DNA of 42,120 nt from the IMG/VR virus record IMGVR_UViG_2534681763_000019. One strand, 5' to 3'. Position numbers and translations under genes: made by a program. The notes under the pieces were generated by a model that was not told where the DNA came from, did no database searches, and saw nothing but the letters and a program-made list of their open reading frames with translations. This DNA is from a virus (Duplodnaviria > Heunggongvirae > Uroviricota > Caudoviricetes). Positions 22,874 through 42,120 of the stretch are shown here, piece by piece (position 1 is the stretch's first letter; each line of letters opens with the position of its first letter).

Positions 22874-23545
22874 TTAAAAACCAAGCTCATCTCTGATTCT
22901 TGGGAATTTTTTCATTACTCGAATATCAGTTAATAAATGCCAACGCCAAAAAACAGAAAATGGATATGATACATTACACATTGGCTTTAGCTTATTCTTG
23001 GCCTCTTGGATTTCTTGTTCTGTGCTTCGATCACTGACAAGTTTCATTCTCCAACCAGTAAAGTAAAACAATTCATCTTGTAACTTCTCTGAGAGATTTG
23101 CTCTTGTAATGCCCCTCAACCCCGTACTCGAAGAGTTAAAACACTTATCTAATAATTTGACTGTATTTAAAACCTTTCTACTTGGTCTTTTTCTTCTTGG
23201 GTATACTTGAACACCACTCGTTATAGCGTTCCCTGCGAGATGAACAATCTCACTGAAAACATCAACATCACTCTTTGTGCAATCAAGTAAGTTTTCAAAA
23301 GAATCACTTTTAATACTATTGCATCGACTGCAAGCTAAAAATAGATTGTTCCAATCATATTTGAGCTCATCAAGATCACGATGTGGAATAAAATGTTCTA
23401 TCTCTGGATCCATAAGATTACCTTGCTCACAGAGATAACATTTTCCATGAAATATTTCGTCTAAAGCATTTACAACTGTTTTATGGTTATATACTTTTCT
23501 CGACAAGCATTGAGGTGCAGGAATATTTCTAGTAACATTAAACAT
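22874..23545 (-). CDS. HNH endonuclease, Septu PtuB-like
   Basis: 223-aa ORF with HNH signature (HGKCYLCEQ...EIEHFIPH...WNNLFLACSRCNSIKSD); RBS aaagggaag; overlaps the upstream ATPase gene by 8 nt; very low GC. Confidence 0.7.
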   Translation of the reverse strand: MFNVTRNIPAPQCLSRKVYNHKTVVNALDEIFHGKCYLCEQGNLMDPEIEHFIPHRDLDELKYDWNNLFLACSRCNSIKSDSFENLLDCTKSDVDVFSEIVHLAGNAITSGVQVYPRRKRPSRKVLNTVKLLDKCFNSSSTGLRGITRANLSEKLQDELFYFTGWRMKLVSDRSTEQEIQEAKNKLKPMCNVSYPFSVFWRWHLLTDIRVMKKFPRIRDELGF

Positions 23546-24776
23546 CGTCTTCCCTTTCGCTATAATCTAAATATTTACTCTTAGCGATCATAAAAGCTGC
23601 TTTTGAACTTTTATCAAGAAAATCAATACTCTTCTGTAACGTTTTCATTATAGAATGAAATCTATCGTCGAAGACATTATTTTCTACTAAAGTCATTAAT
23701 TCTTTAACTAATGCATTTAGCTTATCCGAAGATACATCCTCACCCAACAATCCCTTTATAATTGCTGTGTAAGAATACAATGATAAATCACCCATCTGAT
23801 CCAATGTTGAGAGATTAAATATAATCGCATCAGATACTGATTGGATTACGAAAGGTGAATGCGTAGAAACAATAAATTGTATTTGCGGAAAAGATGATGA
23901 AAAAAAACTAAATACTTTCTTTTGCAATGTTACATGAAGATGAGCATCAATTTCATCAATAAGTACTATCCCTGTCATATCATGTTTTCTGATTTTATCA
24001 AGCTCTGCTTTTATCAATAAATCAGTATAAATAGAAAGAATTGATGAAAAACCAGATGACAACTTATCAAGTCCAAATGGTTCCTTATTATTTTGTAAAA
24101 GATAGATTTTCAACTTGTCGAGATCAAAATCCATTCTAATACTTTCATCTTCAAAAAGTTCTTTTAAGTCATCATTAATACTCTCAATAATATCAAAGGC
24201 TCTTTTATAGTCATCATCCTTGCCCACTCCCTTACTGACTAAAGCATAATTCCACAATGTAACTATGTATCTTTCAAAATACATACCAGCATCAATCTTA
24301 GAATTATTTCTCTGTGCGTTCCCATACTCAGTTAACAACAAATCGAGGCTGCTAATCTTACCATCATTTTTTATTTTCGCTTCTCGAATAGCAGGAAATA
24401 ATCTTATAATTGATTTTTTCTTTTTTGCAGCAACCCTGAAATCAACCACATCATTAAAAGTAATATCAAAGCTCTCAAATTCTTTTAATTTTTCTTTCAG
24501 TCTCTCAATTTCTTCGTTTAAATAGCTATAATTACCATCCCCTCTATTTGAATACTTTAAGTTTTCTTGACTGGAATTCAATTCCTTTTGTAGCTGCTCC
24601 TTAGTATAAGGATCATGTGAATTAATCGATTTTTCTATAAACTCATAAATATTCTCGATCAACCTAGTTTTACCAGAGCCATTATCTCCTGATATTATTA
24701 GATTCTTACCATCAAGATTTAATGTGTAAGGCTCATCGTTCCTTTTAAAGAAGATAGTTTCGATGAAATGTCGCAT
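23538..24776 (-). CDS. ABC-type (AAA_15/21-like) ATPase, Septu PtuA-like
   Basis: Walker A GDNGSGKT, signature-like LSSGFSS, Walker B IVLIDEIDAHLH, H-loop STHSP. Start placed at the second Met (GGAGG 4 nt upstream); the ORF track starts 15 nt earlier at 24791. Confidence 0.7.
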   Translation of the reverse strand: MRHFIETIFFKRNDEPYTLNLDGKNLIISGDNGSGKTRLIENIYEFIEKSINSHDPYTKEQLQKELNSSQENLKYSNRGDGNYSYLNEEIERLKEKLKEFESFDITFNDVVDFRVAAKKKKSIIRLFPAIREAKIKNDGKISSLDLLLTEYGNAQRNNSKIDAGMYFERYIVTLWNYALVSKGVGKDDDYKRAFDIIESINDDLKELFEDESIRMDFDLDKLKIYLLQNNKEPFGLDKLSSGFSSILSIYTDLLIKAELDKIRKHDMTGIVLIDEIDAHLHVTLQKKVFSFFSSSFPQIQFIVSTHSPFVIQSVSDAIIFNLSTLDQMGDLSLYSYTAIIKGLLGEDVSSDKLNALVKELMTLVENNVFDDRFHSIMKTLQKSIDFLDKSSKAAFMIAKSKYLDYSEREDDV

Positions 24777-25228: not shown

Positions 25229-25882
25229 ATGAATAAATACAAACTTTTCGCACAGCTATCAAGATATTCATTTGAAGCGCAGATTGATGATTTCGAAAAA
25301 TATATCCTAGGAGCAGGCGGCCAAAACAGAGTTGACTTATCGGAATTAAAAAAAGCATATGAAGATGAAAAAAAGAATGCTCCTGACGATTATATTAATT
25401 ACTTAGAAGACTATTATTCAGAGCAATATGATTTCTTAGTTAACATACAACCAAATATTTTTAATAAATCTGCTTTGGTATCTTTATACTCATGCTTAGA
25501 GCACAACCTAAACGACTATTGCAATATATGTCAAAGGATTGTAAACACCAATATATCAGTAACCGATTTTAATGGTGATGGCATCCACAAAGCAAAAAGA
25601 TATTTAACAAAATTAATGGATATAAACTTTGGCCTGTCACAAGAGTGGCGATTCATGACAGAGTTTAACAAAGTAAGGAATTGCATAGTTCATGCTAATG
25701 GAGACATTAAAAAAATGAGCACAGCTGTAGCCTTAAAAGATATCATTGATAAAACACCTACTCTTTCATTAAACAATGAAAATAATATAATAATCTCCTT
25801 AAATTATTTAAAAGATACTATCACAAAAATTAGAAAACTCTTTCAATGGTTATATACACATCTGGATCAATCATCGAAATGA
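25229..25882 (+). CDS. Hypothetical protein with HEPN-like R-x4-H motif
   Basis: 217-aa ORF, very AT-rich, with C-terminal motif KVRNCIVHANGD (R-x4-H) typical of HEPN RNase domains; sits at the old/tin-equivalent position between cos and A. Confidence 0.55.
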   Translation: MNKYKLFAQLSRYSFEAQIDDFEKYILGAGGQNRVDLSELKKAYEDEKKNAPDDYINYLEDYYSEQYDFLVNIQPNIFNKSALVSLYSCLEHNLNDYCNICQRIVNTNISVTDFNGDGIHKAKRYLTKLMDINFGLSQEWRFMTEFNKVRNCIVHANGDIKKMSTAVALKDIIDKTPTLSLNNENNIIISLNYLKDTITKIRKLFQWLYTHLDQSSK

Positions 25883-26134
25883 ATACGATAACATCTCAGT
25901 TTGTTATTGGTCTATTTTTGAAAACAGCTATCGATGATATTAGTCTGTTCTTCGTCAATTAATATGCAATCCGTTCATGACACAGGGCTGCTGTTACAGC
26001 CCTGACAACCTTAGACTTCAATCGATTCAGAGATCTCTAACGCATCATCACCCGTTGAACTCACAGCGATAAGTAGACGCTGGCGGCAATAACACAGAAG
26101 TGTAGCGGGAATTTGAACCACATAATTTGGTTTG

Positions 26135-27001
26135 TTAGATGGCTTTGCTTCGATATTCAATTTCTAAAATCGCCTTTGTCATTGCCGCAATAGTTATAGC
26201 TTCTACCATAGTCAATTCAGGCTTGTTCAAGCTTCCGTGTCCAGCAGTAGGTAATTTGTTACGTAAATCATAAATATCTTTAACAGCATCAATAAGATTC
26301 TTAGGTAATTTTGACATTTTTTCGAACTGTTTAAAAAAACCACCCAATGACTCATTTGCCACATTCGGGTTTTGAGTGATTTCCTTAGCCATAGTTTCTA
26401 AAACATTAGAGGCTGCGTGCAGTGCACCTGCCGGATCATTATTATCCAAGCAATTATTCATTCTATCTATTTGCTGAACGATATTTGGGTGCAATCTCTT
26501 TAAGTAATCACTAGCCAATTCTTCATTGAAATTTTTGACACTTTCAAAAACATCGCAATCTAAATAAAATTTAGGATTGACTGACATCCATGTATATTTC
26601 CAATCATTTTCTAAATTATCTTTTTCCGCAATACGCCTGCCAGTGTCCTGATCTATCTCATCAACATATTTACACATATAATCGGCGTAGTAGTGTAAAT
26701 ATCTAAATGATATTTCTGGGCAAAAATTACTAACTGATGCAAGGCCGCCATATTCTTTTGTAGTAACTGTAGGGACTTCTTCATCACATAAAGATGAGAA
26801 AGTGGTTCTTTCCCAAAATTCGCCCAACTCTTTTTCTTTCCTAGTTGCCATACCAGCTATCATATTGATGCTTGAGAGCAAAACTACACTCTGATAGTAT
26901 CGAGGACATCTGTATGAACTAGCATATGGGCATATTGATGATGCTTTACGATTAATACGCTCTTTTTCCCACCAATTTTTATCAGGAATAATTCTTTGCA
27001 T
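26135..27001 (-). CDS. Hypothetical protein (accessory cargo)
   Basis: 288-aa ORF, AT-rich, convergent with the HEPN-like gene, Cys/Tyr-rich N-terminus and helical C-terminus with LRNKLPTAGHGS; no family assignable by eye. Confidence 0.5.
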   Translation of the reverse strand: MQRIIPDKNWWEKERINRKASSICPYASSYRCPRYYQSVVLLSSINMIAGMATRKEKELGEFWERTTFSSLCDEEVPTVTTKEYGGLASVSNFCPEISFRYLHYYADYMCKYVDEIDQDTGRRIAEKDNLENDWKYTWMSVNPKFYLDCDVFESVKNFNEELASDYLKRLHPNIVQQIDRMNNCLDNNDPAGALHAASNVLETMAKEITQNPNVANESLGGFFKQFEKMSKLPKNLIDAVKDIYDLRNKLPTAGHGSLNKPELTMVEAITIAAMTKAILEIEYRSKAI

Positions 27002-35522: not shown

Positions 35523-36191
35523 ATGAATAGCGAACTAGAGTTACTTATAAAAATATTATTCCCTTCCCTATCTGCCATTATATCCTTATTAGGGCTTAAA
35601 ACAGGGTGGACTTATAAAAAAGACAAACTATTCACATCACGTAAAAACATTAGCGAATTTTCATATCAGATGTATAAAAGCAGTGAAGATCCGACCTTCA
35701 AAAAACTGGCGGAAGATTACGGCATTGCTGCATTAACCAAAGATAACACATTGACAAAAAAACAAAGATTAATATTACTCAACACAACAAACCCCGTTAG
35801 CGATATAGATAATTATTCCAAATGTCAAAGTCTAATTTCCATTACCACCCATAAAGAAATATTCGCATGGAATAAAAAAAGATATAAATACAGCATATAT
35901 AGAAAATTAATAAAAATCATAACAACTCTAATTTACTTCATGAGCAGTCTCATCGTAGCACTTCCTTTCAGTTATTCTGTTGTAGTAAGTGCTAAGATGA
36001 TGGAGAAGATAAACCATCTAACTACTTGGCAATACTTTGGTTTAAGCAGCTATTTTGTGGTATCGGGAGTAGCAATATGCTTTATCTGCCTAGATAAGCT
36101 CTCCAAGATTAAGATCGCCGAGAGATTAATCGTTTCGAATAGGCGTTTAGGCGACAAATGCAGTGGCGGCACTTTGGCGGCAGAAAGTTAA
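35523..36191 (+). CDS. AT-rich membrane protein (moron between int and attR)
   Basis: 222-aa ORF, very low GC, hydrophobic helices (LFPSLSAIISLLGL, IITTLIYFMSSLIVALPF, YFGLSSYFVVSGVAICFICL). Confidence 0.6.
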   Translation: MNSELELLIKILFPSLSAIISLLGLKTGWTYKKDKLFTSRKNISEFSYQMYKSSEDPTFKKLAEDYGIAALTKDNTLTKKQRLILLNTTNPVSDIDNYSKCQSLISITTHKEIFAWNKKRYKYSIYRKLIKIITTLIYFMSSLIVALPFSYSVVVSAKMMEKINHLTTWQYFGLSSYFVVSGVAICFICLDKLSKIKIAERLIVSNRRLGDKCSGGTLAAES

Positions 36192-36276: not shown

Positions 36277-36321
36277 ATGTAGGAATTTCGGACGCGGGTT
36301 CAACTCCCGCCAGCTCCACCA
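36277..36321. repeat. attR: second copy of the 45-bp ssrA 3'-end repeat
   Basis: Exact copy of 1016-1060; followed by a terminator and a P4-like integrase gene. Confidence 0.8.
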
Positions 36322-36444: not shown

Positions 36445-37716
36445 ATGGGACCCACTAAGAAGGGTCCAAAAACCGAGGGTCCCAAAATGGCAAAAATCGC
36501 TAAGAAGCTCACTGACACTGAAATCAAAAGCACCAAGCCAGCCGATAAAGAAATCAACTTGTTTGACGGTGATGGTCTGATTCTACGAATCGCTCCTTTG
36601 GCGAAAGGAGGCAAGAAAAATTGGTATTTCAGGTATGCAGTACCAGTGAGCAAGAAAAGAACCAAAATGAGCCTTGGGACATATCCTCACCTTACCCTTG
36701 CAAGAGCCAGAGCCTTACGTGATGAATATCTCTCCTTTCTGGCAAATGGTGTTGATCCCCAAATCCATAACAACGATAAGGCGAAGGCATTAAAGAGTGC
36801 TACTGAGCACACTCTCCAAGCCGTAGCGCGGAAATGGTTAGATGAGAAGGTAAAGACATCAGGTATCTCACAAGACCATGCAGCAGACATCTGGCGCAGC
36901 TTAGAGAGAAATGTCTTTCCCGGTCTGGGTAATGTCCCTATCAATGAGATCCGACCTAAGCTCTTAAAACAACACCTTGATCCTATTGAGCAACGAGGCG
37001 TATTGGAAACTCTACGCCGTATCATTTCACGTCTGAATGAAATCTTCCGGTGGGCAGCTACTGAAGAACTTATTGAGTTCAACCCGGCTGACAACCTTGG
37101 TCAAAGATTCAGTAAACCAAAAAAGCAAAATATGCCTGCCCTTCCCCCAAGCGAATTGCCAAGGTTTATGGAATCTTTGACGAATGCGTCAATCCGGTTG
37201 GAAACACGTATGCTAATTGAATGGCAATTGTTGACATGGGTTCGTCCGGGTGAAGCCGTTCGCGCAAGGTGGTCTGATATTGATACAACCAACAGCATTT
37301 GGAACATTCCTGCTGATTTCATGAAAATGAAAAAGCTTCACAAAGTTCCTTTGAGTAAAGAAGCTTTGCGCATCCTTGAATTAATGAAATCAATAAGTGG
37401 GCATAGAGAATGGGTTTTCCCCAGCATAAAAGCGCCTCTTAATCATATGCATGAACAAACAGCCAACGCAGCTATCATCCGAATGGGGTTCGGAGGCGAG
37501 CTTGTAGCTCACGGTATGCGTTCTATTGCACGAACAGCGGCAGAGGAGGCTGGTAAATTCAGAGCTGAAGTTCTTGAGGCAGCGCTTGCCCACTCGAAAA
37601 AAGATGAAATTATCGCAGCATACAATCGTGCAGAATATCTGATAGAGCGACAGAGTTTGATGCAATGGTGGAGTGATTACGTTCAAGCTCAAAGATCAAA
37701 TGCTCTGGTAGCCTAA
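36445..37716 (+). CDS. P4/CP4-57-like tyrosine integrase
   Basis: N-terminus (MAKIAKKLTDTEIKSTKP...LFDGDGL...WYFRY) follows the P4-family integrase pattern (probable start at the internal Met, 36487); C-terminus has recombinase motifs (ELVAHGMRS...ALAHS...AYNRAEY); sits beside the ssrA att remnant like intA of CP4-57. Confidence 0.85.
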   Translation: MGPTKKGPKTEGPKMAKIAKKLTDTEIKSTKPADKEINLFDGDGLILRIAPLAKGGKKNWYFRYAVPVSKKRTKMSLGTYPHLTLARARALRDEYLSFLANGVDPQIHNNDKAKALKSATEHTLQAVARKWLDEKVKTSGISQDHAADIWRSLERNVFPGLGNVPINEIRPKLLKQHLDPIEQRGVLETLRRIISRLNEIFRWAATEELIEFNPADNLGQRFSKPKKQNMPALPPSELPRFMESLTNASIRLETRMLIEWQLLTWVRPGEAVRARWSDIDTTNSIWNIPADFMKMKKLHKVPLSKEALRILELMKSISGHREWVFPSIKAPLNHMHEQTANAAIIRMGFGGELVAHGMRSIARTAAEEAGKFRAEVLEAALAHSKKDEIIAAYNRAEYLIERQSLMQWWSDYVQAQRSNALVA

Positions 37717-37754: not shown

Positions 37755-38171
37755 ATGGAAACCCTATTCAAAGTTTTTGAAAAATTTAGTTCCAGACCAC
37801 TTTTTTTTATTTTTTTCGGACTCTCACTTTGTGAATTTTTTCAGAAACAATCTGTTCTGATGAATCCATCAGCAGATAACATCGCGAAATTATTCGCAGC
37901 CATGATATTAGTTGTTTTTTTTACTTGGGGATTTGAATGGCTAATCTTCAAGTTCAATGTAAACCTTGAACCTCATGATCAAGGCGATATTGGACCAACA
38001 ATTGGAACGGCTACTTTAGCTGTATACTTAGTTTATGCCTTTCACTTTCTCAGTGAAAATCCTGAAGCATTAAATTTAAAGTTATTAACTAACTCTGGCT
38101 TTATATACAGCACAACTCTATTATTATTCTCATTAGAATGCATGAAGCTTAGAAGACTTAAACAAAAATAA
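37755..38171 (+). CDS. Small hydrophobic protein
   Basis: 138-aa AT-rich ORF with 3-4 hydrophobic helices, directly downstream of the integrase. Confidence 0.5.
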   Translation: METLFKVFEKFSSRPLFFIFFGLSLCEFFQKQSVLMNPSADNIAKLFAAMILVVFFTWGFEWLIFKFNVNLEPHDQGDIGPTIGTATLAVYLVYAFHFLSENPEALNLKLLTNSGFIYSTTLLLFSLECMKLRRLKQK

Positions 38172-38242
38172 ACAACATCATTGTGATGATAAATATAAAA
38201 TAGGCATGGCGAAAAAAAATCACCACGCCTAAAATATAATAA

Positions 38243-40009
38243 TTATGGTAGCATCATTGATACATAATCCACACCAATCCTTGAGCTATACTGAGACGCT
38301 ATAGCCTGATATCTTTCTGCATAACCAGTTCTCAGTTGAGATTTAAGTTTGAGTCGGACAGGAACATTTTGCACGTTGCCATCCATATTACTTAAAAACA
38401 CGGCAGAAATAATATTTTTTTCTTCGCCATCAACTGTTGTTCCATGATTCAACACCACCATATAATCAACAACAGGAAGCGTTTTATCCCCTTCGAAAAT
38501 AGAGAGATATTTTCTTTGATTTTTATGCATTACATATATATATTTCGAATGTTCAGCAAATGGCAATGCTTTACTCTGACTGGCGTTAAAAAGCTCCAGA
38601 ACTTTAATGAGCCTGTGCGGACTTAATCTTACATGGTGAGGGTCGTTACCCTGAGTAGGAACCAAATCACATGCCGCAGATACACATAAATACCATTTGT
38701 TCGACTCTGTATCAAAGAAAATAGTGCCAGTAGAAATATGACCATCTTCAAAATTCTTTGAAGACAAATTCATATTTAAAGCATGATACATTTCGTGATA
38801 AGTATCATTATTTGATGGCAGATCCATTTTTGAAGAGCAATATTGGAGCAATGCAGCAACTCCGCTGTTAGCGTATTCATTTGAATAGCTATCAAAAACA
38901 CTTTTGATAAATTCATCCAGCGTATTATTATTTTTAAGTCTTTGATAAAGCTCTTCTGATAAATTACCAAATACAAAGTCAATATTTCTACATCTAATAT
39001 CAGGCGAGTCTGATTTTAATATCTCATTTAACCACGCAGCTTGACCGTAATGATCGTTAGCCAAATGATTTACAAAAGATAAAGCCTCAGCTTCGATTGC
39101 ATTCTGAATTTCAGATTTTATTAACTGATAATAAGATGGTTTCCATTCAATGAGAGAATCATTGAGAGTTTGCCAAATCCTATCTCCATCGTTTTCATGA
39201 TCATCTTGAACCTTATGAAATAGGGAGACAAAGATATTACCACATTGAATCCATTTTACTCCGCTTTCATCACCCCGAATGACATTGCCAGATGTGTTGC
39301 TAGAAATAATTGCATTTCTAGACACAGCATATTCTGCAATCATTTTTGCAATGAAGTTTTTATCCTTTTGATCCTCCAACACAGCATCATCATGTATTAA
39401 TCTTTTAATTCTTCTACAAGGCTTACTGTCTTTAATATAGGCTATTGTTTCATCTCTTGTGAGAGCTTTATTACCATTATCATTTAAGTTCGGTAATACA
39501 ACGTCTTCCCAATAACTTTGGACATCTTCATTATCGTAGTCAATGATCAAGCTGTTGATATCCAGAGCACCTTTGAGAGTCGATGATATCTGCATCCAAA
39601 CCGTTTCTAAATTCTCTCTAGTATATATTACAATCATATTTAAATGATCGGAGTCTTTCAAATCTTGTAATAGTTTAAGTGTTTTATCAGGTGCATTATT
39701 ATCAAGATGATAATCTACAATAATAAGATCTGATTTTCTAATCCGATCCACATCGAAATTAACAGAACCATTGTCAACATCACAAATCATATTTTTAGAT
39801 TGTAAAAAGCTCTCAAGAGTAGCGGCTCGTTTAGATGAGTCAATTTTGTTGTAGTCTAAATCAACTTCGTTATTCAACGCCCTGATTGATTCAGAATACG
39901 TCAGAAAATCGTCATCAATCATGACAACGGAACGAATTGCATTTTCGCAGAAAGTTTTCTGGACAAGAGAATTATAATTTGCCACTGTCATATTAGAACT
40001 CCACTCCAT
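38243..40009 (-). CDS. Receiver (REC)-domain protein with large uncharacterised C-terminal domain
   Basis: 588-aa ORF. N-terminus has receiver-domain hallmarks: acidic pocket VVMIDDD, phospho-Asp-like DLIIVDYHL, conserved Thr MIVIYT. No HTH evident in the ~450-aa C-terminal region. Start overlaps the upstream kinase-like gene by 17 nt. Confidence 0.7.
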   Translation of the reverse strand: MEWSSNMTVANYNSLVQKTFCENAIRSVVMIDDDFLTYSESIRALNNEVDLDYNKIDSSKRAATLESFLQSKNMICDVDNGSVNFDVDRIRKSDLIIVDYHLDNNAPDKTLKLLQDLKDSDHLNMIVIYTRENLETVWMQISSTLKGALDINSLIIDYDNEDVQSYWEDVVLPNLNDNGNKALTRDETIAYIKDSKPCRRIKRLIHDDAVLEDQKDKNFIAKMIAEYAVSRNAIISSNTSGNVIRGDESGVKWIQCGNIFVSLFHKVQDDHENDGDRIWQTLNDSLIEWKPSYYQLIKSEIQNAIEAEALSFVNHLANDHYGQAAWLNEILKSDSPDIRCRNIDFVFGNLSEELYQRLKNNNTLDEFIKSVFDSYSNEYANSGVAALLQYCSSKMDLPSNNDTYHEMYHALNMNLSSKNFEDGHISTGTIFFDTESNKWYLCVSAACDLVPTQGNDPHHVRLSPHRLIKVLELFNASQSKALPFAEHSKYIYVMHKNQRKYLSIFEGDKTLPVVDYMVVLNHGTTVDGEEKNIISAVFLSNMDGNVQNVPVRLKLKSQLRTGYAERYQAIASQYSSRIGVDYVSMMLP

Positions 40010-41711
40010 TGAACTGGATCACAAAATTAGCGCCATCTTTTATTAAATAGTTATCGCCTTCATCAGGTTCTGAATACCATATTTTATGATGTGCAACAGC
40101 AAGGTTTTCTCGACATAGATACAGACCTACCCCATGTCCATTTGCTCTTTTGCTATAAAATAGTTCAAATAGTCGCGGGATATCATCGGTATCAATTGCC
40201 GGACCAGAATTTGCTATGATAACCAAAGAATTCACAAAACCAATCTTTATGAGCCTATTATTTGACAGACTGACCCAATACATTGCATTGTTGATAATAT
40301 TAGTAAAAACAGGATAGATCCTTGATGGTATATCTGTTATTGCGATTTGCTTAAACTCTTCACTAAATTCAATAGTTATTCGTTGCCGTTCGAAACGCTC
40401 CCCAAAGAACTTCAGGACATAATCCATGATATTTTTTCCAGTTATTCTCTGCCTGGATTGATAACCTGATATTTTCAAAGGTGATAAGAAACGTATTTGT
40501 TGAGTAAGCGATCTGTGAGCATTTAACGCCAATGAAAAACCAGGGTGTTCTTTTACAGAAGTAGGAAGAGAGTTTAGTCCTCTGGTTACCATAGAATCCA
40601 TTTCTTCAAGTTCATGAGATATTATCTCAACACTAATACCTAACTGTGCAAGCGCGTTTAAACTTTTAGCTTTTTCTTCAAAATATGAGCGTTCTTCTTC
40701 AGATAATGAGAATGCTGAATCTAAGTTTATACCTTCAAATAATCTATCGAGACCTTTTATTATTGATTGATATTTGAAAGTTAGGGTATCAACTGACTCA
40801 ACATATAAACTATCGAGCAAATTAAACACATTTTCAATTTGTGAATCATTATCTATTGAATCAACAACTGATATAGTTTTAGCATAATAATCACTTCGAT
40901 CAACCTTTATTTCATCGGCCCATTTTTTTAAAAGAGAATGTATCTTCTCCTCTATCGTGTTATTAAACTTAGTTAGTTTAGAATTAATAATACCTTGATT
41001 TTTTTCAAGGTGATTTTTCGCTGACAATGAAGGCTCAAGTTTATTTAATTCAGAATCAAGTTTATTAATTGCTAACTTCATTTGTAGAATATACGCAGAG
41101 AACTCATTAAATTTATCTCTGTAGTCTCTATATTTCTCTTCATACATTCCAAGTTTTGGAGGTTTGATAGGCGTTTTAATTTCACTGCGCAACGCATCTA
41201 AGTTTGTAAGATCACTGTCTATAATTTTAAGATAGTTTAAATCTAACGAACCATCAGTTTTATCAAGCTTAGTTTTCAGCCTTTTAACAGCCTCCAAGGA
41301 AGCATCAAGAACTGGTGTCTGATTCTTCAAAGCTTCTGAAAAACTTTTTTGTGTTGATTTTCGAGCTTGTTGTTGAGCAGATTTTCTTAACTCTTTTTCA
41401 CGCTTAACTTGTTCTAAAAGCTCTTTACGGTCATCAGAACGTGAACCAAAAAATCTATCAGCAAGTTCAGTTAACAAATTAGATATAATAGTTTTCAGTT
41501 CTCTTGCAGCCTGGTTTCTTATGAATCCCTCTCTCCCCGACTTATCTTTCAGCTCTTTATTACTGGATTGAGTAATTCCAATATAACCAAAAATCCTTCT
41601 ATTAGACCAATAATATCGCCCTGCATTCCATGAACGTCTTTCTTCTATCTGGAAGAAATCATTATCTACTCGACCATAAGGTAATACTCTCAAGCTATCC
41701 CTAAAAATCAT
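39993..41711 (-). CDS. Soluble histidine-kinase-like protein (DHp + HATPase_c), 5' end possibly truncated by IS3
   Basis: 572-aa ORF. H-box-like IISHELEEM, N-box FTNIINNAMYW, G1-like IIANSGPAID, G2-like ANGHGVGLY; long coiled-coil-rich region upstream; no TM segments. The same frame stays open upstream of the first Met to the IS3 end at 41832. Confidence 0.7.
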   Translation of the reverse strand: MIFRDSLRVLPYGRVDNDFFQIEERRSWNAGRYYWSNRRIFGYIGITQSSNKELKDKSGREGFIRNQAARELKTIISNLLTELADRFFGSRSDDRKELLEQVKREKELRKSAQQQARKSTQKSFSEALKNQTPVLDASLEAVKRLKTKLDKTDGSLDLNYLKIIDSDLTNLDALRSEIKTPIKPPKLGMYEEKYRDYRDKFNEFSAYILQMKLAINKLDSELNKLEPSLSAKNHLEKNQGIINSKLTKFNNTIEEKIHSLLKKWADEIKVDRSDYYAKTISVVDSIDNDSQIENVFNLLDSLYVESVDTLTFKYQSIIKGLDRLFEGINLDSAFSLSEEERSYFEEKAKSLNALAQLGISVEIISHELEEMDSMVTRGLNSLPTSVKEHPGFSLALNAHRSLTQQIRFLSPLKISGYQSRQRITGKNIMDYVLKFFGERFERQRITIEFSEEFKQIAITDIPSRIYPVFTNIINNAMYWVSLSNNRLIKIGFVNSLVIIANSGPAIDTDDIPRLFELFYSKRANGHGVGLYLCRENLAVAHHKIWYSEPDEGDNYLIKDGANFVIQFNGVEF

Positions 41712-41832
41712 TAGTCCTGCATACTTTTTGGCCTTAAGATCAAAGTGGGAATGTTCACGTTCAGTATGTGATGTATTTTGTGAAAGGAATTCAAACGTTC
41801 CTATCTGAAGCTCAAATGGGCCGACCCCTGCG

Positions 41833-42120
41833 TGATCCTACCCACGTAATATGGACACAGGCCTAAGCGAGGTTCTTGTTTTCAAATTGTTCCGGACTGA
41901 GGCCGCCACACCAACTGTGCCGCCGCCACCGATTGTAATCACATTCGATATAATTAAACACCGTTGCCCGCATTATTTCCCGGCTGATAAAGTGTTCTCC
42001 ATGGATACATTCCACTTTCAGCGAATGAAAGAAGCTTTCCACGCAGGCATTATCGTAGCAGCAACCTTTTGCGCTCATACTTCCACGCAGATTATGCCGC
42101 TTCAGTTGCGCCTGATAATC
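41833..42120 (-). mobile_element. IS3 (partial; right inverted-repeat end, element continues beyond the window)
   Basis: Terminal sequence TGATCCTACCCACGTAATATGGACACAGGCCTAAGCG matches my recollection of the IS3 right inverted repeat; encodes the C-terminus of the IS3-family OrfB transposase. Confidence 0.8.
41863..42120 (-). CDS. IS3-family transposase OrfB, C-terminal part (truncated by window edge)
   Basis: ORF-track 71-aa fragment (...[23 protein letters not shown]...[12 protein letters not shown]) with the frame open to the window edge; DDE transposase C-terminus. Confidence 0.8.

Follow-up and report, generated by a model that had tools for sequence, protein, structure and literature searches.

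A truncated kinase and receiver-effector gene pair at an ssrA attachment-site repeat in Escherichia coli, probable remnant of a three-gene mobile module

The window analysed here is the whole 42,120-nucleotide (nt) stretch of IMG/VR record IMGVR_UViG_2534681763_000019, and position numbers throughout are those of the window. It is identical to positions 2964528-3006647 of the Escherichia coli ETEC-2265 sequence NZ_CP023346.1. Toward its right end, two adjacent, co-oriented genes on the minus strand encode a histidine-kinase-like protein and a receiver-effector protein, which the original prediction, made from the letters of the window, had taken for a compact two-gene antiphage operon. Both proteins belong to already-published Pfam families, PF19191 and PF19192, and the locus is a decayed copy of this known family. 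A deletion ending at the insertion sequence IS3 has removed a cytosine-5 (C5) DNA methylase gene, about 375 codons from the 5' end of the kinase gene and the remainder of an island; left over are a sensor-less kinase core and the receiver-effector. The features of the pair are the following.

38243-39991, minus strand: receiver-effector gene, 582 amino acids (aa) from Met7 (WP_000214997.1, 'response regulator receiver domain').
38246-39130, minus strand: output module specific to the family, residues 294-588, in which a β-rich C-terminal domain (~417-576) comes after a helical bundle.
39467-39937, minus strand: Response_reg_2 (REC) domain, PF19192, residues 25-181 in the 588-aa numbering.
39993-41832, minus strand: 5'-truncated paraMORC-histidine-kinase gene, codons ~376-988 of 988; the blastn match to an intact locus, L002, ends at 41833.
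40053-40328, minus strand: HATPase_c (CA) domain with N-box and G2-box, PF02518 (44.9 bits against a cut-off of 26.4, E 1.8e-11).
40470-40646, minus strand: HEF_HK (DHp) domain with the H-box histidine His366, PF19191 (26.1 bits against a cut-off of 24.1, E 1.2e-5).

Both open reading frames (ORFs) and all the motifs originally quoted for them were found at the expected places. The receiver ORF extends from 38243 to 40009 on the minus strand (588 aa from its first ATG) and the kinase ORF from 39993 to 41711 on the same strand (572 aa). As had been noted, the pair is AT-rich, with a GC content of 34.3% against 47.8% for the whole window, and neither protein contains a hydrophobic segment of transmembrane grade. 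The 17-nt gene overlap, on the other hand, is not retained. The kinase stop codon occupies 39993-39995, and all receiver homologues begin at Met7 (39991), matching the 582-aa RefSeq protein; because of this shared start, the junction likely has a stop-1 nt-ATG layout.

The kinase contains a HEF_HK and a HATPase_c domain, each above its Pfam cut-off, in line with the DHp and HATPase_c motifs predicted for it. Its motifs are IISHELEEM at residue 363 (with His366; SHELEE covers residues 365-370), IINNAMYW at 472 and ANGHGVGLY at 523, His366 being equivalent to about His782 in the 988-aa protein. With DHp and CA domains and all catalytic motifs in place, the protein is a predicted kinase, a soluble histidine kinase (HK) core. 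The residue at H+4 of the H-box is Glu, and a 2026 preprint describes the PF19191 H-box as being without the T/N phosphatase motif at this position. When a full-length orthologue was compared with the PDB, HK cores such as ThkA (3a0r) were matched over residues 759-969 (E 1e-6), while NCBIfam gave only weak generic HK-core matches, far below the cut-offs.

The kinase gene had been treated as complete, and this could not be upheld. The annotated 572-aa coding sequence (39993-41711) begins at an internal Met; the frame 5' of the annotated ATG is open and homologous up to 41832, after which the IS3 inverted repeat follows, and its in-frame translation does not differ from that of the orthologue. 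Klebsiella, Serratia and Salmonella contributed many proteins of 988-994 aa to a database search, all sharing 99% identity with the 572 residues. Intact 988-aa orthologues have an extra N-terminal HATPase_c_3 domain (PF13589; E 3.9e-9 in orthologue P0036), with the N-box ELWKNAYDA and the G1 box DNGCGM. No match to this paraMORC domain was found by Pfam in the window kinase, since the gene is truncated at 41833, which corresponds to codon ~376 of the intact gene. In blastn, window positions 41833 to 36278 correspond to 11127 to 16681 of L002 with 98.96% identity, and the match ends exactly at the end of IS3. The earlier statement that IS3 bounds the pair is correct in that IS3 occupies the window from 41833 onward, but the element marks a breakpoint inside the kinase gene. 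Most of the island is missing from the window, together with the C5 methylase and kinase codons 1 to ~375; the only methylase present is a prophage adenine methylase, and no C5 methylase (PF00145) adjoins the pair.

The receiver-domain character of the N-terminus of the second protein was confirmed by a Response_reg_2 match of 105.4 bits against a gathering cut-off of 27 (E 4.9e-30). The motifs VVMIDDD at 28, DLIIVDYHL at 94 (with Asp99) and MIVIYT at 125 are present, and the features of the CheY-like receiver superfamily, namely the (βα)5 fold, acidic pair, phospho-acceptor Asp, Thr/Ser and Lys, are all found, with D32/D33, D99, T130 and K266 kept. Pfam, NCBIfam and PADLOC gave no further domain in this protein. 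In agreement with the prediction of an output without a helix-turn-helix (HTH), Pfam detected no HTH or other DNA-binding output domain and structure searches no HTH fold, and nothing in these searches identified an ordinary transcriptional regulator. There is no sequence relative of the protein in the PDB. A phmmer search of the output module against 1.84 billion representatives returned 254 clusters, essentially all with the REC-plus-output arrangement, the short matches looking like fragments; essentially no re-use of the module in other architectures was seen. The output is a family-specific module and not an HTH, possibly with a toxin-like fold.

A MazF/CcdB lead for the output domain was not supported by any of three checks. 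Foldseek against the PDB gave nothing significant for a MazF/Kid/CcdB fold, and none of nine fragments of the receiver protein had a Pfam match to PemK_toxin or CcdB at E<=10. In hhalign, the probability of a match to a hand-assembled MazF/Kid alignment, one sequence of which was verified against the PDB, was 0.2%. No counterparts of the catalytic Arg and Thr of MazF were recognised in the output domain, in which the invariant T429, R560, R577 and D581 are candidates for catalytic residues. The MazF/Kid/CcdB toxins are, moreover, paired with an antitoxin, whereas the output domain here is fused to REC and a helical bundle.

The arrangement as a two-gene operon had to be revised once intact relatives were considered. 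The intact operon comprises a C5 DNA methylase, a 988-aa soluble kinase (MORC-like GHKL ATPase, long coiled coil, HEF_HK DHp and HATPase_c) and the receiver-effector, and it is the methylase that has been lost here. We examined six distinct intact alleles: two ssrA islands, Salmonella Bareilly, a Tn7-like element of Acinetobacter junii, an Acidobacteriaceae locus bearing a type IV secretion system (T4SS; a probable integrative and conjugative element) and a glmS-adjacent metagenomic locus. Examination of the neighbourhood of the pair in other loci, as the original prediction had proposed, placed it in ssrA islands, in other mobile elements or beside glmS. A PF00145 methylase is adjacent to the kinase-receiver pair in all six, mostly upstream with overlapping stop and start codons, and convergent in one; no separate restriction endonuclease is constant across them. 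In L002 and L005 the order is methylase, kinase and receiver gene, with the same P4-type integrase beside smpB/ssrA, and the 3' end of the methylase gene overlaps the kinase start by 20 nt. The intact operon occupies L002:8812-14717, and the L005 allele is 88% identical. Upstream of the L002 module lie a relaxase and further recombinases, which identify L002 as a mobilizable island.

Several of these loci have features of their own. A Tn7-like element (TnsB/C/D/E) carries the module in Acinetobacter junii (L006:5050-11104), where the convergent methylase is preceded by a 71-aa HTH_3 gene resembling a restriction-modification (R-M) controller protein. In the metagenomic locus (L010:13440-15991) the module lies beside glmS and a Prok-E2/JAB/ThiF ubiquitin-like cluster, a setting that suggests a defence island. 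In tblastn searches of plasmids and phages there were two distant plasmid matches only, and two 'phage' records merely include the chromosomal relic described here.

A recurrent truncation of the kinase to 572 aa in other genera was considered and rejected, the Salmonella case being an annotation artefact. In Salmonella Bareilly (L012:4013-5264; GCA_009468465.1) the annotated kinase has 572 aa, yet the reading frame is open over all 994 aa (a single-frame tblastn match to residues 1-994 with 98% identity). The choice of start site in Salmonella may have been swayed by the abundant truncated E. coli protein, and the other 572-aa entries, from Klebsiella, Yersinia, Morganella and Serratia, may reflect the same artefact.

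The state of the locus in E. coli was surveyed in 5,426 complete genomes. The relic is present in ~560 of them, about a tenth, always on the chromosome and with at least 99% identity, and the missing 2.3 kb (methylase and 5' part of the kinase gene) had no megablast match in any. The junction carries IS3 in 484 genomes. In 70 others (including O103:H2 and strain 1639/77) the same kinase breakpoint is joined through a 15-nt filler, ATCCTTAGAGATGCG (L021:2728-2742), to the chromosomal flank with no IS3. In 79 of the 560 carriers there are differences within 71 nt around an A7 tract (38409-38415, minus strand), where a 1-nt deletion, seen in 4 sampled genomes, frameshifts the last ~57 residues of the receiver protein. 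An O103:H2 lineage (FWSEC0007, L022) has an IS3-family insertion in the receiver gene, and one strain (GZ04-0086, L023) has IS1 in the receiver gene together with a frameshifted kinase. Among the independently disrupted alleles, a very small sample, the receiver gene is always struck and the kinase only together with it; in so small a sample, this pattern would fit a toxic effector that was disarmed first.

Nine single-nucleotide polymorphisms segregate among seven E. coli alleles, and eight of them are nonsynonymous. The position two residues ahead of the H-box His is affected by one of these polymorphisms and a near-invariant REC Asn by another, and in the window allele itself a near-invariant Phe of the REC domain is replaced by Leu. 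Polarised with the 88%-identical outgroup, the E. coli branch shows 4 synonymous and 3 nonsynonymous changes. The E. coli copies are simply young.

The remaining features of the island remnant and its borders are listed below.

36277-36321, plus strand: 45-bp exact repeat of the ssrA 3' end (attachment site), start of the island remnant; homology to L002 starts at 36278.
36445-37716, plus strand: P4-type tyrosine integrase, RefSeq start 36487 (Pfam Arm-DNA-bind_3, Phage_int_M and Phage_integrase).
37755-38171, plus strand: hypothetical protein of 138 aa, encoded convergently to the pair and often present beside it, though not part of the core module.
38201-38231, minus strand: terminator-like hairpin with a 12-bp stem and T-run, 12 nt past the receiver stop codon (consensus scan, pattern match only).
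41833-42120, minus strand: right end of IS3, directly adjoining the kinase breakpoint; it contains the inverted repeat TGATCCTACCC... and the transposase gene's 3' end.

The pair had been placed beside a P4/CP4-57-like integrase at the ssrA integration site. The P4-type integrase is indeed its neighbour, as it is in L002 and L005, but ssrA itself lies at 698-1060, and only its 45-bp 3' end (1016-1060) is repeated exactly nearby, at 36277-36321. Between ssrA and this attachment-site repeat sits a complete 35-kb P2-like prophage (1061-36321), which makes the island remnant the second of two elements arranged in tandem at ssrA. GenBank AJ304858.2 labels the same stretch a 'remnant integrative element' with a 'histidin kinase-like protein'. 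The gene for the 138-aa protein occurs in L002 and L012 and not in L005; its product had no significant match in Pfam, PADLOC or NCBIfam, with one sub-threshold Pfam match (E 0.028). This IS3 has no flanking target-site duplication, which fits an IS-mediated deletion.

The P2-like prophage carries AT-rich cargo of its own. A Septu system is located at 22874-24776 on the minus strand, with a 412-aa PtuA (PADLOC 7e-122) and a 223-aa HNH protein, PtuB (1.8e-82), and further AT-rich cargo is found at 25229-27001 and 1184-1666. A 217-aa cargo protein has a weak PADLOC match to RTasHEPN (5e-5), a 288-aa cargo protein has no match, and a 160-aa protein adjoining ssrA matches the candidate PDC-S48 (1.7e-7). 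Between the P2 integrase and the attachment-site repeat, a 222-aa hydrophobic hypothetical protein (35523-36191, plus strand) gave only very weak PADLOC matches (1TM-TIR 0.012, Cas2_II 0.007).

These observations allow us to consider what the locus once was. We think it probable that it is the decayed remnant of a three-gene mobile module carried by an ssrA-integrating mobilizable island, that the intact form is an R-M-like conflict system, and that the pair in the window, because its sensor domain and methylase are absent, is most likely a non-functional relic. In the intact module the methylase would mark self DNA, and the MORC-type GHKL ATPase domain would sense the state of the DNA, following the roles proposed by Iyer, Abhiman and Aravind in 2008 for paraMORC ATPases in R-M operons (PMC2292703). 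The coiled coil would carry the signal to the kinase core, which would autophosphorylate on its His (His366 in the remnant numbering) and pass the phosphoryl group to receiver Asp99, freeing a toxic output domain, possibly of MazF/CcdB fold. Restriction, abortive infection or post-segregational killing could follow. The window pair, deprived of its sensor and methylase, would persist because its truncation is recent, and the relic would be tolerated if the sensor-less core is unexpressed, or is expressed without activating the effector. The antiphage or abortive-infection role originally proposed is plausible for the intact system and unlikely for the truncated copy. In its fullest form, the proposal makes the intact ancestor an immune or addiction system of R-M type in which a methylation read-out is relayed by His-to-Asp phosphotransfer to a MazF/CcdB-like toxin, with the E. 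coli relic keeping the kinase core and the toxin module. We regard this version as tentative and somewhat doubtful; a methylation-linked phosphorelay to a toxin would be a combination without precedent demonstrated in any system.

A number of points weigh against the interpretation as a relic of an R-M-like system. IS3 is the likely but not proven cause of the deletion, given that 70 genomes share the breakpoint without it. Relaxed selection cannot be read from as few as 4 + 3 substitutions. The defence or R-M-like role of the intact module is based on gene context, and we found no experimental work on the PF19191/PF19192 family in the literature. When PADLOC v2, a check that the original prediction had recommended, was run on the pair, the full-length kinase and the island neighbours, only the methylase was matched (type II MTase models); the receiver protein had no hit at E<=0.1 and the full-length kinase had none. 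Finally, both remnant ORFs are intact in ~480 of the 560 carriers, and with an AGGA (Shine-Dalgarno-like) 4 nt 5' of the internal kinase ATG, a 572-aa kinase core could be made.

These last two facts also speak for the alternative that the truncated pair still works as a two-gene phosphorelay defence or abortive-infection module, its sensor-less core being expressed by read-through from IS3, responding to infection and activating the receiver-effector. The retention of His366, the N and G boxes and D32/D33/D99/T130/K266, and the terminator-like hairpin at the end of the unit, would suit it as well. However, the domain in the sensor position and the linked methylase are gone, and a promoter scan upstream of the kinase remnant found no site exceeding shuffled expectation. 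The copies are 0.1-0.2% diverged, so that selection is not needed to explain intact ORFs; alleles broken by frameshifts or IS insertions are common, and the window allele itself departs from the REC consensus at the near-invariant Phe. We consider a working pair very unlikely.

Other alternatives concern the intact module. That the pair is a regulatory two-component system governing neighbouring R-M or methylase genes, rather than the toxic part of a system, was a speculation of the authors who described the family in 2021, whose gene-neighbourhood statistics and discussion favour it (PMC8011034). Against it stand the lack of an HTH or DNA-binding Pfam domain or of an HTH fold in the receiver protein, the H-box without the phosphatase motif expected of a reversible regulator, and the fact that the methylase is the sole constant R-M-type gene in the six alleles, which leaves no restriction gene in need of regulation. 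On this evidence a purely regulatory role seems distinctly improbable. The module could instead be mainly an addiction device that stabilises a mobile element by post-segregational killing, as many type II R-M systems do, with the E. coli relic as the leftover after disarming. In line with this, the module always travels on mobile elements (an integrative and mobilizable element with relaxase, a Tn7-like element, the T4SS-bearing locus), a single event took the methylase and sensor domain together while the effector survived, and the disrupted E. coli alleles always hit the receiver gene, the kinase only alongside. Those alleles are nevertheless a very small sample, and the same facts are compatible with defence, from which addiction is not exclusive; as the main function, addiction appears unlikely. 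We retain the reading of a decayed three-gene module with an R-M-like intact form.

The main value of this result for the window is a correction: what looks like a compact defence system of two genes belongs to a published Pfam family and has been truncated. Interest attaches to the intact three-gene system elsewhere rather than to the window locus, and a defence or addiction system built on a methylation-linked phosphorelay is a reasonable hypothesis for the intact family. The suitable subject for tests of the system is the complete operon of three genes, available at 99% identity in Klebsiella, Serratia or Salmonella, not the E. coli pair.

Among known systems, the original prediction had pointed to Detocs, which consists of a TPR-sensor kinase, a stand-alone receiver 'buffer' and an effector that is usually a PNP ATP-nucleosidase. 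The likeness is sound as an analogy of logic, in that cytoplasmic His-to-Asp phosphotransfer leads to a receiver fused to a non-DNA-binding effector. The third gene of Detocs, however, is a stand-alone receiver and not the Hpt gene that had been assumed, and the system here differs in its MORC-like GHKL sensor, the lack of a buffer gene, another effector and the linked methylase. Identity with Detocs was rejected: no PADLOC model matches kinase or receiver, no third receiver gene was found in the window or in the intact loci, and Pfam detected no PNP domain. The portions of the accounts of MADS and Vibrio WonAB/GrwAB that were available contain nothing pointing to the PF19191/PF19192 family as a named equivalent. 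A DefensePredictor figure legend lists an unvalidated HATPase+REC prediction, which may or may not represent this family.

The intact module resembles those type II R-M systems that have a controller protein and a C5 methylase: its own C5 methylase is either translationally coupled or convergent, and in Acinetobacter a small HTH_3 gene lies upstream of the methylase. It differs from them in having no recognisable restriction endonuclease, the partners of the methylase being a kinase and a receiver-effector. With the paraMORC systems the intact kinase shares an N-terminal HATPase_c_3 GHKL domain beside a cytosine methylase, a domain gone from the window copy. paraMORC1-5 occur with helicases or nucleases, or with restriction-endonuclease-fold, TIR or uncharacterised C-terminal domains, and not as a histidine-kinase fusion with a cognate receiver (PMC2292703).

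The system to which the locus belongs is the Response_reg_2/HEF_HK 'TCS-like' (two-component-system-like) pair described by Bellieny-Rabelo, Pretorius and Moleleki (Genome Biol Evol 2021; PMC8011034). The suggestion of an undescribed variant or family falls with this assignment, as PF19191 and PF19192 were published in 2021 in a data set that included E. coli members. These authors reported 91.6% gene linkage over 644 regions, soluble kinases, and a HATPase_c_3 domain at the N-terminus of 83% of members; C5 methylases, Vsr and further R-M genes were over-represented in the neighbourhood, and they proposed descent from paraMORC ATPases (PMC8011034). The pair in the window agrees with theirs in the two Pfam families, their adjacency and the soluble kinase; it differs in lacking HATPase_c_3 and the methylase, both owing to the deletion. 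In the 2021 paper HEF_HK plus HATPase_c without HATPase_c_3 was counted as a natural architecture, group 2 (PMC8011034). Here that architecture results from truncation, and in one Salmonella record from start-site misannotation of an open 994-aa frame; the HEF_HK architecture without HATPase_c_3 in the literature is at least partly a truncation or annotation artefact.

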